DNA of 24,000 bases, taken from positions 1-24,000 of the forward strand of contig JAQTSA010000005.1 of NCBI GenBank assembly GCA_028711575.1, in the 5' to 3' direction. How positions within the stretch are numbered: position 1 is the first letter of the stretch; each line of letters starts with the position of its first letter. The position numbers were made by a program, and so were the translations under genes. This stretch comes from Candidatus Omnitrophota bacterium (GTDB taxonomy: Bacteria > Omnitrophota > Gorgyraeia > Duberdicusellales > 4484-171). Below are positions 4,977 to 22,938 of this stretch, one piece after another. The notes below the pieces were generated by a model, which made no database searches, was not told the DNA's origin, and saw nothing but the letters and a program-made list of their open reading frames with translations.

Positions 4977-5149
4977 GTTAATATTTTATCCTAAAATTTA
5001 ACTCAATAAAATCCTAAATTTTCTTTTCGAGAGTACCGCTTCCTTTTTAGGCTTTTTGTTTGTCCTTTTTTTAGGCTTTAAAGTCGGGATAAAGCTATAA
5101 AGCATTGATAATAAATGGTTTAGGTGTAGGAAAAAACTGGCTTAGACCA

Positions 5150-5178
5150 TTGACGAATGAGGTTATTTGGAATATAAT
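5150..5178 (+). promoter_or_regulatory. Near-consensus sigma70 promoter upstream of the EF-G2-like gene
   Basis: TTGACG (5150-5155), an exact 17-nt spacer, then TATAAT (5173-5178). The next + strand gene starts at 5406, implying a ~220-nt leader. Confidence 0.6.
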
Positions 5179-5405: not shown

Positions 5406-7409
5406 ATGAGAAGCGATCTTACTAGAAAACGAACCTTTCTTGTTTGTGGGCACGCTCATTCCGGAAAAACATCTTTAGTTGAGGCCTTGTTATTTAAAGC
5501 CGGAGCGGTCAGCCGGTTAGGAAAAGTCCAAGAAGGTAATACTGTTAGCGATTATGAAGAGGACGAACATCAAAGATGCAGTTCTATAAATCTGGCGGTT
5601 GTAAACGCTGAATATAAAGATAATTTTTTCCAATTTATTGATACCCCGGGATATTTGGATTTTATTGGTGATGTTATTGCCTCAGTCAGGGCGGTTGACT
5701 TTGGCGTTATTGTCGTAGATGCTACCAGTGGAATCGAGGTCGGTACTGAACGCGCTTTTGAAGCTTTGCGAAGAGAAAATGTTCCTTGTTTGTTTGTTAT
5801 CAATAAGCTTGATAAAGAAAATACTAGTTTCCAGAACACCTTTAATGACATTAAAAATAACTTGATTAAACAGGCTATTCCTTTTTCAGTTTATGATTCG
5901 GGAAAGATCAAAGATGCTCTTGAGGATAAGGAAAACATTTATTACTCGCAAATAATGGAAACTGTTGCCGAAACTAACGATCTTTTGTTAGAGAAGTATC
6001 TGGAAACGGGCCAAATCGCAGAAGCTGAGTTTGGCCCGGCATTAAAAAAAGCGATTGTTAATTCCCAAATTTTCCCGGTGTTCGGCTGTTCATCGGAAAC
6101 ACTTGTTGGGATAGATGTTTTACTTGATGAATTAACAAAAGTTATGCCTTCTACCAGCGATGCTTTAGGCCGAAAGGCAAAAAAAGGGGATAAAGAGGTC
6201 GTTTTAGGCAATACGGTTGACGGAGAGCTGGCGGCACAGGTTTTTAAAACCATAGTTGACCCTTTTATCGGTAAACTCAGCATTTTCAGAGTTTATTCCG
6301 GAAAAATTTCCTCAAACAGTGATGTTTATAATTCAACAAAAAAGATTAAAGAAAAAGTCGGACAGATTTATATTTTACAGGGCAAACAGCAGCTTGCCTG
6401 TGATGGTGTTTGTGCCGGAGCTATTGGCGCTGTTGCTAAATTAAAAGATACCGAAACCGGAGATGTTTTTTCTTCTCCTGGCGAAGATATTGAGTTTGCT
6501 CCTTTTGCTTTTCCTCCTCCGTCATATAGCGCTTCAGTTAAACCAAAGACAAGAAAAGACGAAGAAAAAATTTCAACGGCGTTGTCTAAGTTAATGTTAC
6601 AGGATCCAACCTGCAGTACGTCGCGCGACTCACAAACAAAAGAATTAATCGTTTCCGGTTTGGGCGAGTTGCATCTTAATGTGATTATTGAAAGAATGAA
6701 GAAAAAATATGGTGCTGATGTTGATTTGGGGACACCGAAAGTCCCTTATAGAGAAACTATTGCCAAGTCGATCAGTGTCCAGAGCAAATATAAAAAACAA
6801 TCCGGTGGACGAGGCCAATATGCTGATATATGGATTGAGGTTGAGCCGCTGGAGCGAGGTAAAAATTTTGAGTTCGTTAATAAAATTGTTGGCGGCGCGG
6901 TTCCTAAAAACTTTATTCCTTCGGTAGAAAAAGGAATTAAAAATGCGATGCTTTCCGGCGGTGTGCTTGCTGGATATCCTATTTCTGATATTCGAGTTAC
7001 AATTTTTGACGGTTCTTATCATCCGGTTGATTCCTCGGACATGGCTTTTCAGATCGCCGGGTCAATGGGCATAAAGAAAGCTTTAGAAGATGCCGGTAGC
7101 GTTATGCTTGAACCGATAATGGACGTTGAGATTGTCGTGCCAGAGGAGTTTATGGGCCAAATTACCGGTGATATCACCTCTCGTCGGGGCCGAGTTCAGG
7201 GTATGGAAGTCAAGGGGAAGAAAGAAGCAGTTAAAGCGTCGATTCCTTTGGGAGAGATGTTTAAATATGCCTCAGATTTGCGTTCGGTTACTGGAGGAAA
7301 GGGATCATATACGATGAGTTTTTCTCACTATGATGTTGTTCCTCAGCGAGTGGCCCAAGGCATCATTGATGAGGCCAATAAAGCAAAAGAAATGGCCGCC
7401 CATCATTAA
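5406..7409 (+). CDS. Elongation factor G paralog (EF-G2-type translational GTPase)
   Basis: I place the start at ATG 5406, which is preceded by AAGGAGG (5394-5400). The track ORF start at 5328 adds 26 implausible residues. The G1 motif is GHAHSGKTS rather than the canonical AHIDAGKTT, followed by DTPGYLDF (G3) and NKLD (G4). The N-terminus resembles, from memory, Thermus EF-G-2 (GHAGSGKTT...DAPGYGDF). Domains II-V are present through the C-terminus. Confidence 0.85.
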   Translation: MRSDLTRKRTFLVCGHAHSGKTSLVEALLFKAGAVSRLGKVQEGNTVSDYEEDEHQRCSSINLAVVNAEYKDNFFQFIDTPGYLDFIGDVIASVRAVDFGVIVVDATSGIEVGTERAFEALRRENVPCLFVINKLDKENTSFQNTFNDIKNNLIKQAIPFSVYDSGKIKDALEDKENIYYSQIMETVAETNDLLLEKYLETGQIAEAEFGPALKKAIVNSQIFPVFGCSSETLVGIDVLLDELTKVMPSTSDALGRKAKKGDKEVVLGNTVDGELAAQVFKTIVDPFIGKLSIFRVYSGKISSNSDVYNSTKKIKEKVGQIYILQGKQQLACDGVCAGAIGAVAKLKDTETGDVFSSPGEDIEFAPFAFPPPSYSASVKPKTRKDEEKISTALSKLMLQDPTCSTSRDSQTKELIVSGLGELHLNVIIERMKKKYGADVDLGTPKVPYRETIAKSISVQSKYKKQSGGRGQYADIWIEVEPLERGKNFEFVNKIVGGAVPKNFIPSVEKGIKNAMLSGGVLAGYPISDIRVTIFDGSYHPVDSSDMAFQIAGSMGIKKALEDAGSVMLEPIMDVEIVVPEEFMGQITGDITSRRGRVQGMEVKGKKEAVKASIPLGEMFKYASDLRSVTGGKGSYTMSFSHYDVVPQRVAQGIIDEANKAKEMAAHH

Positions 7410-7427
7410 ACAGGAAAGGTTAGCAAC

Positions 7428-8099
7428 ATGAAAATTTACAGTCGGATTGAGGAGTTCTTTGGCAAAAAACAGTTTCGCGATGAGAAATTAGTAAAATTAC
7501 AAGAGAGGTTTCAAGCCTTGAAAACTGTTTTTTATGGAGTTGAGTTTACAAATGAGCGGCGTGATTCTTGTGATTGTATCTTGGCAGGCAAAGATGAGTT
7601 GCTCGATTTTATTGTTGAAGATATCGAGCGGGGGGAAAACTTAATTTCTAAGGTGGAAGAAAAAGCGGCAATTGAAAAAGGGTTAGAGATATTGAATCGG
7701 GAAAAACTTCTTTTTGAAGAGTTAAGCGGCGAGGATTTAAAGGTTTTTCGTGATTATTCCTTTGTAACAGCTAAGCCGATTATTGTTTGGAGCCAGGAAG
7801 GTTTGGACCAAATTCTTCTTAAAATCTTTGAGAAAACTAAAACAGTTTTTTTCTATGCTGCCGGGAAAAAAGAAGTTCATGCCTGGATGGTTCCACTCGG
7901 CAGTGATGTTGTGACCGCGGCTTCAAAAATACATAGCGATTTGGCCCGCGGTTTTATCCGGGCCGAGGTCTATAACGCCTCAGATCTTGATAATTTTAAG
8001 AATTTATCTGAAGCTAAACAGCGGGGCCTTTTAAAGTTGGTGGATAAAAGTTATATCGTTAATGATGGGGATGTCTTGGACGTAAAGTTTAGTGTTTAA
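7428..8099 (+). CDS. YchF-like protein retaining only the helical and C-terminal TGS-like (DUF933) regions; no P-loop
   Basis: 223-aa ORF starting 18 nt after the EF-G2 stop. The C-terminus (FFYAAGKKEVHAWMVPLGSDVVTAASKIHSDLARGFIRAEV...VDKSYIVNDGDVLDVKFSV) aligns by eye to E. coli YchF ([39 protein letters not shown]...GKDYIVKDGDVMNFLFNV). No GxxxxGK[ST] is present anywhere in the ORF. Confidence 0.75.
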   Translation: MKIYSRIEEFFGKKQFRDEKLVKLQERFQALKTVFYGVEFTNERRDSCDCILAGKDELLDFIVEDIERGENLISKVEEKAAIEKGLEILNREKLLFEELSGEDLKVFRDYSFVTAKPIIVWSQEGLDQILLKIFEKTKTVFFYAAGKKEVHAWMVPLGSDVVTAASKIHSDLARGFIRAEVYNASDLDNFKNLSEAKQRGLLKLVDKSYIVNDGDVLDVKFSV

Positions 8100-11097: not shown

Positions 11098-12531
11098 ATG
11101 AACCAAAAATTCATAAAGCGATATAACAGTACTGACACGATTGCCGCTTTGGCGACTTTTCCTTCAAAAGCCGCTTTAGGTATAATAAAACTTTCCGGGC
11201 CGCGGGCTCTTGATATCGTTTCTAAAGTTTTTAAGCCTAAAAATAAGAAAAATTTAAAAAAAGTTAAGACTTACACTTTACATTATGGCTGGATAATCGA
11301 GAGTTGCTCGGACAAAAAAAAAGCGGAAAAATCAGATAATTTGCCGGTTCTTCTTGATGAGGTTTTGGTTTCGGTGATGCGCAAACCGCATTCTTATACC
11401 TGTGAAGATGTCGTTGAGATCTCTTCTCATGGCGGGGTATTTGTTGTTAATCGGATATTAAAAGAACTTTGTCTTGTCGGTGCCCGCTTGGCCTTGCCGG
11501 GTGAGTTTACTTACCGGGCTGTAATTAACGGCAGAATCGATTTGCTGAAGGCTGAAAGTATTCTTGATATTGTTGATGCTCATAGTCAGCAAGGTTTGCA
11601 AGTCGCTTTAGACCAATTAAACGGTAAGGCTTCTAAAAATATCAACGATTTAAAAGACCGCCTCCAGCTCGTTTTTGTTGAAACCGAGGCGGCTTTAAAT
11701 TTTTCTGAAGATTTGTCAACCGATACGGCAGTTTCTGAATTAATAAAGTCTTTAACTGTTATCAGGAGCGATATAACGGCTTTAATTAAGCGTAGCGCTG
11801 AAGCGCTGATTCTTAAGGAAGGCGTTAAGTGTGTTATTTGTGGACGAACCAATGCCGGAAAATCTACCCTTTTTAACCGGTTGTTAGGCCGGGAGCGGGT
11901 TATTGTCAGTGAGGTAGCGGCAACGACCCGGGATGTGGTCGAAGAAACTATTGTTGTCCGCGGCGTGCCGTTACGAATTTGTGATACCGCCGGCTTAATT
12001 ACACCGAAAGACTTGGTTACTAAAGAAGCGGTTTTAAGAACACAAAAAGCTTTTGGTGAGGCTGATTTGATAATTCTTTTACTGGACAATTCCCGAGCCT
12101 TGAGCCGAGATGATAAGTTTTTAATAAAAAAGATAAAAGATAAGAAAAAAATAATTGTAATAAATAAAACTGATTTAAAGCAAAAATTAAATTTAAAGGA
12201 TTTAAAAGGTTGTCGGGGAAGACGGGTTTTTATCAGTGCTTTAAAAGATAAGGGGATTGTCGCCTTAGAGAAAGCTGTCGCCGAAGAAGTTTCTTTTGCT
12301 GATATTGACCGGGAAAACAGTGTTTTCTTAAGCGCCTATCAACGGCAATCTTTCGCTTTAATCGAAGAAAAAATTTCTAAAGCCCTGCGGTTTCTTGGTG
12401 AGGGTTATACTTTAGATTTTATTAATCAGCTTTTGGCTGAAGCCTTAGATGAGTTCTCAAAGATTACTGGAGAAGTTTTGACCGAAGATGTTTTAGAAAC
12501 TGTTTTTAGTAATTTTTGTATTGGTAAATAA
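11098..12531 (+). CDS. mnmE: tRNA uridine-5-carboxymethylaminomethyl modification GTPase
   Basis: 477-aa ORF. It has a TrmE N-domain (DTIAALATFPSKAALGIIKLSGP), the G-domain motifs GRTNAGKSTLFN, DTAG and NKTD, and the diagnostic C-terminal CIGK. Confidence 0.93.
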   Translation: MNQKFIKRYNSTDTIAALATFPSKAALGIIKLSGPRALDIVSKVFKPKNKKNLKKVKTYTLHYGWIIESCSDKKKAEKSDNLPVLLDEVLVSVMRKPHSYTCEDVVEISSHGGVFVVNRILKELCLVGARLALPGEFTYRAVINGRIDLLKAESILDIVDAHSQQGLQVALDQLNGKASKNINDLKDRLQLVFVETEAALNFSEDLSTDTAVSELIKSLTVIRSDITALIKRSAEALILKEGVKCVICGRTNAGKSTLFNRLLGRERVIVSEVAATTRDVVEETIVVRGVPLRICDTAGLITPKDLVTKEAVLRTQKAFGEADLIILLLDNSRALSRDDKFLIKKIKDKKKIIVINKTDLKQKLNLKDLKGCRGRRVFISALKDKGIVALEKAVAEEVSFADIDRENSVFLSAYQRQSFALIEEKISKALRFLGEGYTLDFINQLLAEALDEFSKITGEVLTEDVLETVFSNFCIGK

Positions 12532-12648: not shown

Positions 12649-13212
12649 ATGAATAAGAAGATCGATAAGAAAAAGATTGAACAAGGCATTCGAATGGTTC
12701 TTGAGGCTGTCGGTGCCGATTTAGATATTAAAGATATCGCGAAAACTCCTCAGCGAGTTGCCCAGATGTATGAGGAAATTTTGGCGGGACAGTTTAAAAA
12801 TCCGGAAGATGAAATAAATGTTATTTTGGAAGAAGAACATGATGAAATTATTTTACTAAGAAATATTTCATTTTATTCTCTATGTGAGCATCATCTTGTT
12901 CCATTTTTTGGTAAAGCGCATGTTGCCTATATTCCGGATAAACGGATAACTGGTTTAAGCAAAATTGCCCGGGTAGTAGAAGTTTTGTCACGCCGTCTTC
13001 AGGTTCAAGAGCGGCTTACTACCAAAATAGCTGATGTTTTAATGAAAAAACTCAAACCTAAAGGGGTTTTTGTCGTTATTGAAGCTGAACATCTTTGTAT
13101 GTCAATGCGCGGTGTAAAAAAACCGGGAACGACAAATGTCACGTCGGTTGTTCGAGGTGTTTTTCGAACCAATTCGAAGACTCGCCAAGAAGCATTGAGC
13201 CTTATCAAATAG
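12649..13212 (+). CDS. folE: GTP cyclohydrolase I
   Basis: 187-aa ORF preceded by the SD GGAGG. It contains TPQRVAQMYEEILAG, the catalytic SLCEHHLVPF, and QVQERLT. Confidence 0.93.
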   Translation: MNKKIDKKKIEQGIRMVLEAVGADLDIKDIAKTPQRVAQMYEEILAGQFKNPEDEINVILEEEHDEIILLRNISFYSLCEHHLVPFFGKAHVAYIPDKRITGLSKIARVVEVLSRRLQVQERLTTKIADVLMKKLKPKGVFVVIEAEHLCMSMRGVKKPGTTNVTSVVRGVFRTNSKTRQEALSLIK

Positions 13213-13244
13213 ACTTTTGGGTAAGAGAAGAAGCTCATGGCTCA

Positions 13245-13388
13245 TTCGCGCCTTCGGTGCTGTTTGCAGATGATCACAGAAGCCGCGCCTTCGGCTCGGC
13301 AGCAGATGATCACAGATTCGCGCCTTCGGCGCTGTTCGCAGATGATCACAGAAGTCGCGCCTTCGGCTCGGCAGCAGATGATCGCAGA
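13245..13388. repeat. Four head-to-tail 36-bp GC-rich hairpin units in two alternating variants (72-bp higher-order period)
   Basis: Units lie at 13245-13280 (ttcgcgccttcggtgctgtttgcagatgatcacaga), 13281-13316 (agccgcgccttcggctcggcagcagatgatcacaga), 13317-13352 and 13353-13388. Each has a GC-rich stem around a CCTTCGG apex plus a conserved GCAGATGATCACAGA linker containing the palindrome TGATCA. There are no spacers between units. Confidence 0.9.
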
Positions 13389-13446
13389 TATATGGTATTT
13401 AGGAAATAGCCTTTTTGAGAAGAGAAGAGTCAAACGATTGTCAGAA

Positions 13447-13478
13447 AGTGATTGAGTGATTGAGTAATTGAGTGATTC
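13447..13478. repeat. 4 x 8-bp tandem repeat AGTGATTG
   Basis: The sequence reads agtgattg agtgattg agtaattg agtgattc directly. Confidence 0.85.
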
Positions 13479-13484
13479 AGCGAA

Positions 13485-13524
13485 ATAGAAATTTATAGAA
13501 ATTGATAGAGATTTATAGAAATGT
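13485..13524. repeat. 4 x 10-bp phased tandem repeat ATAGAAATTT
   Basis: The units are atagaaattt atagaaattg atagagattt atagaaatgt. The reverse complement of this motif (AAATTTCTAT-like) recurs in 10-bp phase at 13630-13669 and 13875-13914. Confidence 0.85.
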
Positions 13525-13592
13525 GTTGTTTTTAAAAAAGGAGCTAAATATTGCACAATGGAAATCCTATTTATTCCTAATCCAACTGAGAG

Positions 13593-13676
13593 AGTTTGCG
13601 AGTTTCAAACATTGGTTTCTTCAAACAATAAATTTCAACTAATTTCTACAAATTTCAATTTATTTCTACGACAATT
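13593..13676. repeat. Copy 1 of an ~85-90-bp dispersed direct repeat (contains a 4 x 10-bp AATTTC(A/T)A array at 13630-13669)
   Basis: It starts with agtttgcgagtt, followed by caaacattggtttcttcaaacaataaatttcaactaatttctacaaatttcaatttatttctacgacaatt. By hand alignment it matches 13830-13921 at about 60 of 71 positions, plus an identical 12-mer and one 8-9-bp indel. Confidence 0.8.
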
Positions 13677-13768
13677 GTTTGACGGTCGCCTGGGCTGAGC
13701 CAGTTTGACAGGCGTACTCCGCGTGTTTGACGCCAACGCAGTGAACGTTTGACGCGAGCGTAGCGAGC
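13677..13768. repeat. Four GTTTGAC-led units (26, 22, 22 and 22 bp) in a GC-rich block
   Basis: GTTTGAC occurs at 13677, 13703, 13725 and 13747. Each is followed by 15-19 nt of GC-rich, non-conserved sequence, for example gcgagcgtagcgagc. Confidence 0.75.
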
Positions 13769-13778
13769 TTTCTTGTTC

Positions 13779-13813
13779 GGGTATAGGGTTCAGGGTCTCG
13801 GGTTTAGGGTGAA
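13779..13813. repeat. 5 x 7-bp tandem repeat GGGTNNN
   Basis: The sequence reads gggtata gggttca gggtctc gggttta gggtgaa directly. Confidence 0.85.
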
Positions 13814-13829
13814 GAGTTTCAGAGTTACT

Positions 13830-13921
13830 AGTTTGCGAGTTCTGAGTTGACAAACATTGTTTTATCCAAACAACTAATTTCAATCCATTTCTATAAATTT
13901 CAATTTATTTCTAAGAGAATT
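13830..13921. repeat. Copy 2 of the ~85-90-bp dispersed direct repeat (10-bp phased array at 13875-13914)
   Basis: It starts with agtttgcgagtt, then the insertion ctgagttga, then caaacattgttttatccaaacaactaatttcaatccatttctataaatttcaatttatttctaagagaattt. It is in the same orientation as copy 1, 237 bp downstream. Confidence 0.8.
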
Positions 13922-13948
13922 TGTGAGTCATGATAGTGATAAGATCTT

Positions 13949-15922
13949 TTAAATCACGGGGTCAATAAAGTCAAAGCTTGGTTCTATAACATTAACTTCT
14001 TCGTAAGTCTCAAGCGGTAAATCATAAAAGAACATTGACGGTTGAGTCACTATCAGTCCGTTTTTAAAAGTATATTTTGTCTCAGGATAGCTGATGTATA
14101 GGTGAACCTTTGCTCTGGTTGCCGCGACATAGAAAAGTCTTCTTTCTTCTTCCAGTTGGTCTTGGGAGTTGAGGGCTTTAGGGTGGGGAAACTCGTAATT
14201 GTTAAACCCGATTAAAAATACAGCTTCCCATTCTAAGCCTTTGGACTGATGTATTGTTGAAAGGACTAACACCTCTTCTCTTTCGCCCGGTGCGATTCTT
14301 GTTTCACCTTTAAATTCTTCGAAGGCATTAAATTCAAGGAGAAACTGTTTTATCCCGGAATAACTTCTTGCCATTTTAGAAAGTTCTTCTAAATCGAGAA
14401 TGCGTTCTTCGGGGTTATCAAAGGATAAATAGCAGTGCTCTTTGTAAAAGCTTAATATTTCATTCAAAGCTTCTTCAGCGGTTGTCATTTTCTTTATTGC
14501 CTCAAGAGACAGTCGGAAATTTCTAAATCCCTGTTTGGGTCGTTTTGGCAGAGAATTTTCGATTTCGCTGAAAGGCCTTTCATTAAATATCATTTGCCAT
14601 ATTTTATGAGCGAAGGTTCGTCCTAATCCTTTTTGAAGGCATAAAACTCGTTTGTAAGAGAGTTCGTCTTTAGGGTTAACGATTATTCTAAGATAGGCTA
14701 AGGCGTCCTTGATATGAGCCTGTTCAAAAAATCGTACGCCGCCGCGGACGATGTAAGGAATGCCCCGTTTCATAAGCTCGACTTCTAGCTCTAAGGATTG
14801 AAACCGCGAGCGAAAAAGAACCGCTATTTGATTTAGAGGAATATCGTCTTGGTAAAACTCAAGTATTTTTTGGCCGATAAATTGAGCTTGCTGGTAGACA
14901 TCCTTTGTTTTAACAATTCTCGGCTTTTCATTGTCTTCTTTTACTGCCCGCAGTGTTTTGGGAAATTGGTTTATGTTGTGTTTAATTATTTCGTTAGCCA
15001 AATCTAATATTTGAGGGCTTGATCGATAATTAAGTTCTAACTTAAATATTTTTGTTTCCGGAAAAACTTTGGGAAAATCAAGGATGTTATTAATTTGGGC
15101 CGATCGGAAAGAATATATAGATTGGGCATCATCGCCAACGGCTAATATGTTTTTATGTTTTGAGGCTAACAGGTTCAAAAGTTCGAATTGTAATTGATTG
15201 GTGTCTTGATATTCATCAACTAAAATGTATTTAAACTGGTCGGAATACTTATTCCGGACGAAATCGTTTTTCAATACTTTAAGCCAATTGTTAAGCAGAT
15301 CGGAAAAATCCATAATGTTGCTCTGAATTTTTTTATGATTGTATAAATTAAGAATTCTCTTTATTGGTTCAATGAATTCTTCTAATTTCGGGTAAGAGTT
15401 TAGGATGATCTCTTTAACTTCTTTTTGAGCGTTGACTGCTAAATTCCAGATTGTAGAAAGGATATCTTTTTTTGGGAAAAGGGTTCCTTTATCGGAGTAC
15501 CCGGCTTCGGACATACAATCGGCAATGTAGCCAAGCGAGTCTTCGCGATCAATTATTGTAAAGCTGGGCGTGTATCCCAGCAAATGGGCTTCTTTTCTAA
15601 GGATAACGTTTCCGATGTGATGAAATGTTCCCGCCCAGAGTTTGGATAAGTCTGATTTAAGGACAGTCTCAGCGCGATTGACCATTTCGATTGAAGCTTT
15701 GTTGGTAAAGGTTACAAGTAAAATGTTTTCCGGATTTATTCCTTGATCTAATAAATAGGCTAACCGGTATATTAATACCCGGGTTTTTCCTGATCCGGCT
15801 CCGGCTAAAACTAAACAGGCACCGTTGGTTGCGGTAGCTACTTTGAATTGCTGAGCGTTAAGATCTTTACTGTAATCAATCGTCGATTGAGATTTGAAAG
15901 GCTTTAATTGATAGTTTTCCAT
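13949..15922 (-). CDS. UvrD/PcrA/Rep-family ATP-dependent DNA helicase (superfamily 1)
   Basis: 657-aa ORF. It carries Walker A AGAGSGKTRVLIYRLAYLL, motif II VDEYQDTNQLQFELL, plus GDDAQSIYSFRSA, NYRS, TIHQSKGLEW and YVAATRAK. Confidence 0.9.
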   Translation of the reverse strand: MENYQLKPFKSQSTIDYSKDLNAQQFKVATATNGACLVLAGAGSGKTRVLIYRLAYLLDQGINPENILLVTFTNKASIEMVNRAETVLKSDLSKLWAGTFHHIGNVILRKEAHLLGYTPSFTIIDREDSLGYIADCMSEAGYSDKGTLFPKKDILSTIWNLAVNAQKEVKEIILNSYPKLEEFIEPIKRILNLYNHKKIQSNIMDFSDLLNNWLKVLKNDFVRNKYSDQFKYILVDEYQDTNQLQFELLNLLASKHKNILAVGDDAQSIYSFRSAQINNILDFPKVFPETKIFKLELNYRSSPQILDLANEIIKHNINQFPKTLRAVKEDNEKPRIVKTKDVYQQAQFIGQKILEFYQDDIPLNQIAVLFRSRFQSLELEVELMKRGIPYIVRGGVRFFEQAHIKDALAYLRIIVNPKDELSYKRVLCLQKGLGRTFAHKIWQMIFNERPFSEIENSLPKRPKQGFRNFRLSLEAIKKMTTAEEALNEILSFYKEHCYLSFDNPEERILDLEELSKMARSYSGIKQFLLEFNAFEEFKGETRIAPGEREEVLVLSTIHQSKGLEWEAVFLIGFNNYEFPHPKALNSQDQLEEERRLFYVAATRAKVHLYISYPETKYTFKNGLIVTQPSMFFYDLPLETYEEVNVIEPSFDFIDPVI

Positions 15923-16078: not shown

Positions 16079-16171
16079 TGCTTTTAAGTTAAAGCCGGTT
16101 ATAATTGGTTTTTTAATCGTCGGTAATTTTTCGTTTAATTTTAAAAAAGTCAAAAAAACTAAAAAGAAAGT

Positions 16172-22713: not shown

Positions 22714-22839
22714 AACCCCTATGATTTTCAATCTTTTGGCGGCGGGAAATTATTTTTTCCGGGTTTTATCGTTTTTTGTCCCTTGATAAGAGAATAATCC
22801 GTTGTTTTTATTCAAAAAGTTAGTGTTTTTGAATATAGT

Positions 22840-22866
22840 TTGACTTTTCGTAATTTGTTTTATAAT
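22840..22866 (+). promoter_or_regulatory. Putative glgP promoter
   Basis: TTGACT (22840-22845), a short 15-nt spacer, then TATAAT (22861-22866), about 70 nt upstream of the glgP start. Confidence 0.35.
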
Positions 22867-22938
22867 AGTAGATACGGATAAGATACCGGAGTTTAGTTAT
22901 TTTTTAGATTTTTTGTTTTTATTAAAAGGGGTAATGTT

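Follow-up and report, generated by a model that had tools for sequence, protein, structure and literature searches.

Repeat modules in the gap between convergent folE and helicase genes of a Candidatus Omnitrophota bacterium: a probable mosaic of interspersed elements

The repeats of the folE-helicase gap

The stretch of DNA analysed here (the window) is 24 000 nucleotides of a contig from a Candidatus Omnitrophota metagenome-assembled genome (MAG), and the subject is the 736-bp gap at 13213-13948, on which folE and a gene for a UvrD/PcrA-type helicase converge. We read this gap, with a probability of roughly 0.65, as an accumulation of mosaic interspersed repeat modules that is non-coding and specific to its lineage, comparable with BOX elements, bacterial interspersed mosaic elements (BIMEs) and miniature inverted-repeat transposable elements (MITEs). 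A preliminary description of the locus, made from the sequence alone, had offered three possibilities: a multi-domain non-coding RNA (ncRNA) locus, an iteron- or centromere-like platform, and a cluster of BIME-like or repetitive extragenic palindrome (REP)-like elements. The last is favoured of the three, because modules of the gap recur at other loci (L211, identical to L217, and L212 and L215), are absent from the same junction in relatives and vary between strains, although several of the features that define REPs and BIMEs proper are missing.

The gap has a GC content of 0.41, compared with 0.19-0.36 for the other intergenic regions of the window, which are 3-387 bp long. Against the 38% GC of the genome, its GC-rich blocks stand out. 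Repeats were located with Tandem Repeats Finder (TRF) and a direct and inverted repeat search, and chance expectations were obtained from dinucleotide shuffles. The features of the locus are as follows.

11098-12531: mnmE, two genes upstream of the gap
12649-13212, + strand: folE (PF01227, E=1e-73)
13202-13231, + strand: 30-bp direct repeat a, spanning the last 11 nt of folE including the stop codon; 80% match to 13399-13428
13237-13455, + strand: 72-aa open reading frame (ORF), annotated in GenBank as hypothetical protein PHV17_00930 (MDD5069270.1)
13244-13389, + strand: M1, 72 bp x2.0 (94% matches) or 36 bp x3.4, i.e. 4 x 36 bp; TRF scores 264 and 181
13399-13428, + strand: 30-bp direct repeat b, partner of 13202-13231
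13429-13442, + strand: left 14-nt inverted repeat, GTCAAACGATTGTC, one GTCAAAC unit in the orientation opposite to M4; 13/14 (93%) complementary to 13670-13683
13447-13477, + strand: 8-bp tandem array, AGTGATTG x3.9 (TRF)
13485-13539, - strand: inverted M3 copy, a 10-bp phased array of ATAGAAATTT x3.8 (13485-13522) with a tail
13540-13588, no strand assigned: non-repeated foldback loop, with GGAG and a 46-aa ORF without support
13589-13605, + strand: M2, first copy, GAGTTTGCGAGTT (repeat search; alignment with L211)
13598-13676, + strand: M3, copy 1, CAAACATTG... followed by ATTTC at 13632, 13642, 13652 and 13662 (exact 10-bp steps)
13670-13683, + strand: right 14-nt inverted repeat, GACAATTGTTTGAC, pairing with 13429-13442
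13677-13768, + strand: M4, four GTTTGAC-led units at 13677, 13703, 13725 and 13747 (spacing 26, 22 and 22 bp) with GC-rich interiors
13775-13813, + strand: M5, five GGGTNNN heptads, GGGT every 7 nt at 13779-13807, a canonical G-quadruplex motif (TRF)
13813-13848, + strand: M2, second copy, GAGTTTCAGAGTTAC, 15-bp period x2.3 (TRF)
13844-13921, + strand: M3, copy 2, ATTTC at 13877, 13887, 13897 and 13907
13949-15922, - strand: UvrD/PcrA-type helicase (PF00580/PF13361)

An exact look-up placed folE, the gap ORF, the helicase and the next gene as MDD5069269-MDD5069272 of an Omnitrophota MAG with PHV17_ locus tags, on a contig of 34.8 kb. All of the nearest homologues of the helicase belong to Candidatus Omnitrophota, and their identity does not exceed 67%.

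Each M1 unit consists of GCAGATGATCACAGA and a GC-rich hairpin with a stem of 5-8 bp and the loop TTC. The stem GCGCC/GGCGC, or an extended version of it, is common to the four hairpins, whose folding energies are -6.6 to -11.9 kcal/mol; at most 2% of shuffles fold equally well. The array is bracketed by the pair of 30-bp direct repeats, which is also present in the strain variant L004. The idea that this direct repeat is an old folE 3′ end was dropped after a comparison of the FolE C-termini of relatives, which was uninformative.

M3 copies 1 and 2 match at 85% over 71 ungapped nucleotides (13606-13676 versus 13851-13921); allowing an 8-bp indel lengthens the match to ∼84 nt. Read in reverse complement, the ATAGAAATTT array corresponds to the arrays within both of these 84-bp copies (53-54 nt, 74-76% complementary), and one module of ∼54 nt is thus present three times in the gap, with one copy inverted. 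The interiors of the M4 units form weak hairpins in the window and strong ones in L211 and L004, while M5 was not seen in L211 or L212. The regular expression for G-quadruplex motifs, for which shuffles predict 0.035 matches per window, matched only twice in the 24 kb, at 13779-13809 in the gap and at 14164-14188 inside the helicase coding sequence (antisense to it), both on the + strand and ∼350 bp apart; it had no match in ∼75 kb of relatives.

The repeats are specific to the gap within the window. GCAGATGATCACAGA has 4 matches (0.17 expected), the CGCGCCTTCGGCKC pattern with up to 2 mismatches has 4 (0.14 expected) and an 18-mer of the 84-bp element has 5 (0.34 expected), all of them within the gap. 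Every repeat family of the preliminary description (36-bp, 8-bp, 10-bp, ∼84-bp at 85%, GTTTGAC and GGGT) was found again, approximately where it had been placed and far above chance. The accompanying claim that no other intergenic region of the window is comparable is borne out by length, by GC content and by the confinement of the repeat matches to the gap.

An inverted module set lies on the folE side of the gap and is followed on the helicase side by M2-M3-M4-M5 and a further M2-M3, all direct. Almost all junctions between modules carry (C/T)GTCAAAC or its complement. When read in the sense of the upstream gene, the combination hairpin-(C/T)GTCAAAC occurs 3′ of folE, of the helicase gene and of a 131-aa gene at another locus (see below), and this orientation rule accounts for the inversion of the folE side of the gap with respect to the helicase side. 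The arrangement at L212 departs from the rule.

Copies of the modules at other loci

A 27-mer of M3 (the 84-bp element), used to scan metagenomes, found L211 and L212. The first of these, whose sequence recurs unchanged in L217 from a second sample, belongs to a sister species of the window organism. It carries M1-M2-M3-M4 between two unrelated, co-oriented genes, in the order of window positions 13589-13768 with M1 in front: CAGATGATCGCAGAG-hairpin-GCAGATGATCAC, a tandem GTTACGAGTTTGCGA x3 (M2), the 84-bp element and four GTTTGAC-led units. It matches M3 copy 2 of the window at 91.4% over 70 nt, and both it and L212 match M3 copy 1 at 94.6% over 37 nt. The four GTTTGAC-led units of L211 align collinearly with M4, and 13725-13754 (30 nt) is 93% identical to its counterpart there. 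The second locus, L212, lies between divergent tRNA-Ser and tRNA-Arg genes and consists of nine ATTTCYAY units, a GYGARCG-type GC unit and an 8-bp array (TTTGAGAT x5).

An orthologue of the 131-aa gene beside the L211 element, PHV17_09325 (83% identical), is present in the MAG of the window itself, on a contig (L215) that shares its sequencing run with the contigs of the window's folE and helicase. Downstream of this gene, L215 has a hairpin of the L211 type, GTTTAAC, a unit like unit 2 of the window, GTTTGAC and the M1 core CAGATGATCRC (CAGATGATCAC) in the opposite orientation. The same core recurs in L211. Module content therefore differs even between orthologous sites (L211 versus L215). 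Judged from these matches, the modules form a family, present at two or more loci of the window's genome and in at least one sister species.

Several other matches were set aside. The viral contigs L090 and L091 have only a 19-22-mer in common with the gap, and in L090 this is coding. Contigs L221-L227 contain coding tandem repeats, including a phage 36-bp repeat with CAGCAGATGATCAC, and the match follows from the construction of the search pattern. In phage contig L224 (6400-6560; also L226 and L227) this repeat encodes the 12-aa SADDHFDMIYDT, and its sharing of CAGCAGATGATCAC with the gap unit was judged a coincidence. The pattern GTTTGAC-N12-22-GTTTGAC-N12-22-GTTTGAC matched more than 119 unrelated contigs in IMG/VR, and was too unspecific to be used.

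The neighbouring orthologous gene provides a yardstick for the divergence of the two species, its DNA being 85% identical and its third codon positions 73.5%. M3 copies at non-orthologous loci of the two species, on the other hand, share 91-95% identity, and M3 copy 2 is nearer to the L211 copy (91%) than to copy 1 of the same gap (85%). This conservation points to either constraint or recent spread and gene conversion, which four copies cannot separate.

The junction in relatives and in a second strain

Contigs of five relatives, with helicases 64-67% identical to that of the window, preserve the gene order EF-G ... purH - Mur ligase - mnmE - folE, convergent with the helicase gene. The junction between folE and the helicase gene was as follows.

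L218: 10-bp overlap
L086/L087: 1 bp
L088: 179 bp
L219/L220: 1.9 kb with three genes

None of the gap modules occurs at these syntenic loci, so that the block is a lineage-specific addition at a junction that tolerates change; the synteny check put forward in the preliminary description thus came out in favour of an addition in this lineage. Judged by these relatives, the folE/helicase junction is a hot spot for change. The genes inserted in L219 (and L220), at 5959-7774, encode a 169-aa protein, an extracytoplasmic function (ECF) sigma factor and a 240-aa protein. The 179-bp gap of L088 contains, at 2820-2880, a 7-8-bp periodic A-rich repeat (AAAATCA / AAAATGC ...), like the AGTCAAAA array beside the tRNA-Ser gene of L212, and it may be that arrays of short period are widespread between genes in this group.

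Independent assemblies bear out 13213-13295 (L001-L003), 13213-13300 and 13373-13443 (L004), and 13886-13948 (L005). An identical FolE protein is encoded on four short contigs of other assemblies (L001-L004), all of which stop inside or just past the 36-bp array (window 13292-13300). The ENA contig L004, from the window's species, has two 36-bp M1 units where the window has four. Past GTCAAACGATTGTCA, it has a CGTTC-TTC-GAACG hairpin with TTGTCAAAC on either side, followed by an M3-like start. Its sequence departs from that of the window directly after the left inverted repeat at 13429-13442, which marks 13444-13597 as a strain-level indel or replacement.

A probable mosaic of interspersed modules

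The module set that emerges from these comparisons comprises the M1 hairpin with CAGATGATCAC, M2 (GAGTTTGCGAGTT), M3 with its 10-bp phased ATTTCYAY, the GTTTGAC-led GC-rich M4 and local 7-8-bp arrays. These modules are rapidly rearranged, duplicated and replaced between strains and between orthologous sites, and have accumulated at a permissive spot between convergent genes which abut or overlap in relatives. They could spread and exchange as small non-autonomous elements, either by transposition in the manner of MITEs or through recombination at the junction motif GTCAAAC, with the tandem parts expanding and contracting through slippage or unequal exchange. A cellular effect, if any, would be secondary. 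The M1 hairpins, lying in the folE 3′ untranslated region (UTR), could, in the manner of REP and BOX elements, stop read-through or 3′ exonucleases, and the M3 arrays could be bound by a nucleoid protein or by one that bends DNA.

A number of points weigh against this interpretation. No target-site duplication and no pair of empty and filled sites was seen, nor was there a transposase or RAYT gene in the window, and the mobility of the modules is accordingly something we infer. Only three loci were met with beyond the window, and the sequence available for one of them, the genome's second locus, is ∼110 nt. JGI metagenomes and IMG/VR gave no match to the M1 pattern. The interior of the gap (13444-13885) is seen in one assembly only, that of the window. 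The identity of the M3 core, 91-95% as against 73.5% at third codon positions, fits a constrained site as well as it fits recent spread. The M3 array of L212 sits in a divergent tRNA promoter region, at odds with a role in 3′ UTRs, and the gap has no canonical intrinsic terminator.

Alternative explanations

The M3 arrays, in three blocks of four with one block inverted, could instead be iteron- or centromere-like sites under selection, forming a protein-binding platform on which the other modules are hitch-hikers. We consider this unlikely, although the exact 10-bp spacing of ATTTC in each block speaks for it, as do the nine M3 units in the tRNA promoter region of L212 and the closeness of M3 copy 2 to the copy of the sister species. 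The 37-nt M3 core, moreover, is 94-100% identical in 4 copies at 3 loci in at least 2 species, well above the third codon positions. However, the array is missing from the same gap in the five syntenic relatives, its position relative to genes is inconsistent, no binding protein is known, and, as noted above, constraint is inseparable from recent spread or gene conversion with four copies. No par, rep or regulator gene adjoining the gap was seen in the window. The platform proposed in the preliminary description could apply to the 10-bp array module only.

A combined version is more tentative still: an undescribed mosaic system of the Omnitrophota, in which M3 (91-100% identical, compared with ∼73% at synonymous positions) would be a conserved platform for a DNA-binding protein and (C/T)GTCAAAC, a 7-8-nt motif that flanks the hairpin insert of L004, would serve a dedicated recombinase or transposase as the core site for inserting or exchanging small hairpin cassettes. 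If such cassettes exist, the ends of the putative mobilising enzyme's element might carry GTCAAACRATTG or CAGATGATCAC.

A structured ncRNA locus, giving rise to one or more small RNAs from the M1 hairpins and M4-M5 that might, for example, sequester a protein through single-stranded motifs between the hairpins, is improbable. It was suggested by the GC-rich blocks in a 38% GC genome and by the strand asymmetry of the gap (GAGTT 6 versus AACTC 0, GGGT 6 versus ACCC 0, CTTCGG 4 versus CCGAAG 0). The + strand also folds better than the - strand, at -205 kcal/mol (z=-1.9) and -161 kcal/mol (z=-0.8), respectively, for the whole gap. Both substitutions in the M1 stems yield G-U pairs on the + strand only, but two wobble-compatible changes have a chance probability of ∼0.25. 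The foldback at 13429-13683 (255 bp), bounded by the 14-nt inverted repeat (13/14) and with 53-nt internal inverted arms, has a folding z of -2.76, while that of the M1 array is -0.63 and that of the GC-rich M4-M5 core (13670-13830) is +0.63. Thus, the GC-rich DNA of the gap is no more structured than its composition predicts, with the exception of the four M1 hairpins.

The whole window had no match to an Rfam covariance model at the gathering score, and nothing matched in the L211 and L212 elements; with E up to 10 allowed, the top-ranking match below threshold within the gap had E=2.8. Promoter-like sites in the gap are no commoner than in shuffled sequence, and there is no terminator. The block is missing from the orthologous gap of relatives, its copy number varies by strain, and neither module order nor M1 orientation is constant between orthologous loci. 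The multi-domain ncRNA of the preliminary description is not supported, for want of a database match, an excess of promoters or terminators, a structured core and conservation in the orthologous gap; the failure of that description to match the gap to the RNA classes it considered or to CRISPR was borne out. Clear promoters of the form TTGACN-17-TATAAT lie elsewhere in the window, at 2730-2765, ∼5130-5165 and 22838-22870. The sigma-70 consensus is thus in use, and the GTTTGAC units of the gap resemble -35 boxes without a -10 partner.

It is very improbable that the gap is a purely local product, its tandem repeats made in place by slippage with neither a family nor mobility. Arrays with periods of 8, 10, 15, 36 and 72 bp and variation in copy number are indeed what slippage produces, and the gap of L088 likewise has its A-rich periodic repeats. 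But several modules, in the same order, are common to non-homologous loci of the same genome and of a sister species, and L211, L212 and L215 contradict a local origin.

Scarcely credible is a gap that encodes a real 72-aa protein, PHV17_00930, or a ToxI-like RNA antitoxin array. The ORF does carry a GenBank annotation. It forms a singleton cluster, however, and a search of 1.84 billion representatives yielded only itself and one weak match to a repeat protein (E=5e-4), with no match in Pfam or PADLOC. All four differences between its two 72-bp repeats are non-synonymous, and the L004 variant would remove 24 aa from it. PHV17_00930 is probably a repeat-generated annotation artefact. No coding support was found for the remaining ORFs of the gap, and the earlier view that the gap holds no credible coding sequence was retained. 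A search with a pseudo-protein concatenated from the repeat ORFs was empty, but it missed the 72-aa segment of its own query and, being uninformative, was not counted. As to ToxI, the RNA of the type III toxin-antitoxin system ToxIN, it consists of tandem repeats of 36 nt, which is the period of M1. A type III system was rejected because this period is present but a downstream toxin ORF is absent: no ToxN/AbiQ-like ORF follows the 36-nt array, no + strand ORF longer than 46 aa does so, and there was no PADLOC match.

A replication origin or terminus, prompted by the nearby mnmE (11098-12531), the AT-rich phased repeats and one TTATCCAAA at 13864, is effectively ruled out by a GC skew that stays positive without a sign change over all 24 kb and by synteny, the gap being 1 bp or an overlap in relatives, and dnaA, dnaN and a cluster of DnaA boxes are absent from the window. 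CRISPR arrays have repeats of 23-47 nt and unique spacers of similar length; here repeat and interior together amount to only 22-36 bp, with a conserved part of 7-15 nt, and this identity was discarded. Integron attC sites have inverted core sites (RYYYAAC...GTTRRRY) around each cassette and are accompanied by an intI gene. They were excluded since GTTTGAC is one position off GTTRRRY, the four copies are direct, their interiors are 15-19 nt and the window has no integrase.

Elsewhere in the window, a run of nine G (GAGAGGGGGGGGGTGC) at ∼16090-16102, in the region between the divergent helicase and ARMT1-like genes, is possibly prone to slippage. A 26-nt direct repeat (TTGTTTTTATTCAAAAAGTTAGTGTT, 81%) at 22802-22938, with copy starts 111 bp apart in the convergent gap past an aldolase gene, has no relation to the repeat family of the folE/helicase gap.

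Significance

If the mosaic-module reading holds, the gap would contain what is apparently the first modular interspersed repeat family documented in the Omnitrophota; the non-coding DNA of this uncultured phylum is unstudied, and full-text literature searches found no description of such a family. The suggestion of an undescribed element confined to a single locus is weakened, on the criterion set in the preliminary description itself, by the recurrence of its units elsewhere. A false lead is also removed, in that the gap is most probably not a new RNA gene, an origin or a defence locus. Repeats of this kind fragment short-read assemblies, as the four contigs ending in or just past the 36-bp array illustrate, they mark strain-level variation, and they can stabilise 3′ ends or bind proteins. 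For the study of genome dynamics in the group, testable hooks are offered by the unusually conserved 10-bp array and by the recurrent GTCAAAC junction motif.

Comparison with known repeat systems

BOX elements are modular and 67-637 bp long, vary between strains in the number of boxB modules and are clustered downstream of genes (PMC3049150). The gap resembles the BOX elements of Streptococcus pneumoniae and S. suis (boxA-boxB(n)-boxC; PMC3049150) in being a composite, modular and intergenic block of up to several hundred bp without a gene of its own. An internal tandem module varies between strains in both (here M1, with four units in the window and two in L004), and the modules are recombined differently in L211, L212 and L215. 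Further likenesses are the stem-loops predicted if the DNA is transcribed, the enrichment 3′ of genes and the clustering with other repeats. The gap differs in having no sequence similarity to BOX, in belonging to another phylum and in its module types, of which there are at least five, in no fixed order and without a terminal boxA/boxC pair. It has a 14-nt inverted repeat, no target-site duplication was found, and 3 further loci are known.

REPs occur mainly between unidirectional and convergent ORFs, and those of the CGTC type have stems of 8-9 bp starting with A-T pairs, loops of 4-5 nt and a CCA tail (PMC3733652). Like REPs and BIMEs (PMC3733652; PMC2817692), the gap has short GC-rich extragenic hairpins in mosaic clusters with linker motifs, in convergent or unidirectional gaps; the roles proposed for these elements include mRNA 3′-end protection, termination and binding of integration host factor (IHF) or gyrase. 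Many M4-type units end in CGTC or TGTC, within (C/T)GTCAAAC, while M1 has neither a GTAG nor a CGTC tag. However, the stems of the gap are 4-9 bp with loops of 3-4 nt, with no leading A-T pairs and no CCA tail. The M4-type stems in the window, L211, L215 and L004 are unrelated and several units are stemless, and the stems of the gap as a whole are heterogeneous in sequence. The four M1 and four M4 units are all head-to-tail, whereas the REPs of BIMEs alternate. No transposase, RAYT or integrase was found among the 19 genes of the window, the remaining genes being housekeeping genes.

The segment at 13429-13683 resembles MITE or foldback elements such as Correia/NEMIS and RUP, as it is 255 bp long with 14-nt terminal inverted repeats (13/14) and internal inverted arms, is non-coding and intergenic, and folds better than shuffled sequence. 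In contrast to such elements, its flanks are AGA and GGT, and hence without a target-site duplication, there is no insertion sequence in the window and no cognate transposase is known. The whole unit bounded by the terminal inverted repeats was not found at the other loci or in the scanned collections, where only its modules were met with.

Iteron and centromere-like arrays of plasmids, such as parC of R1, consist of short direct repeats one helical turn apart. The blocks of short direct repeats in the gap have this spacing and occur in two orientations. Unlike parC, the array is chromosomal, is present at several loci, has no partition or replication gene beside it and is absent at this position in relatives. 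On the features compared, the gap would be best placed under the general kind of mosaic interspersed intergenic repeats, rather than within the REP, BIME, BOX or MITE families.

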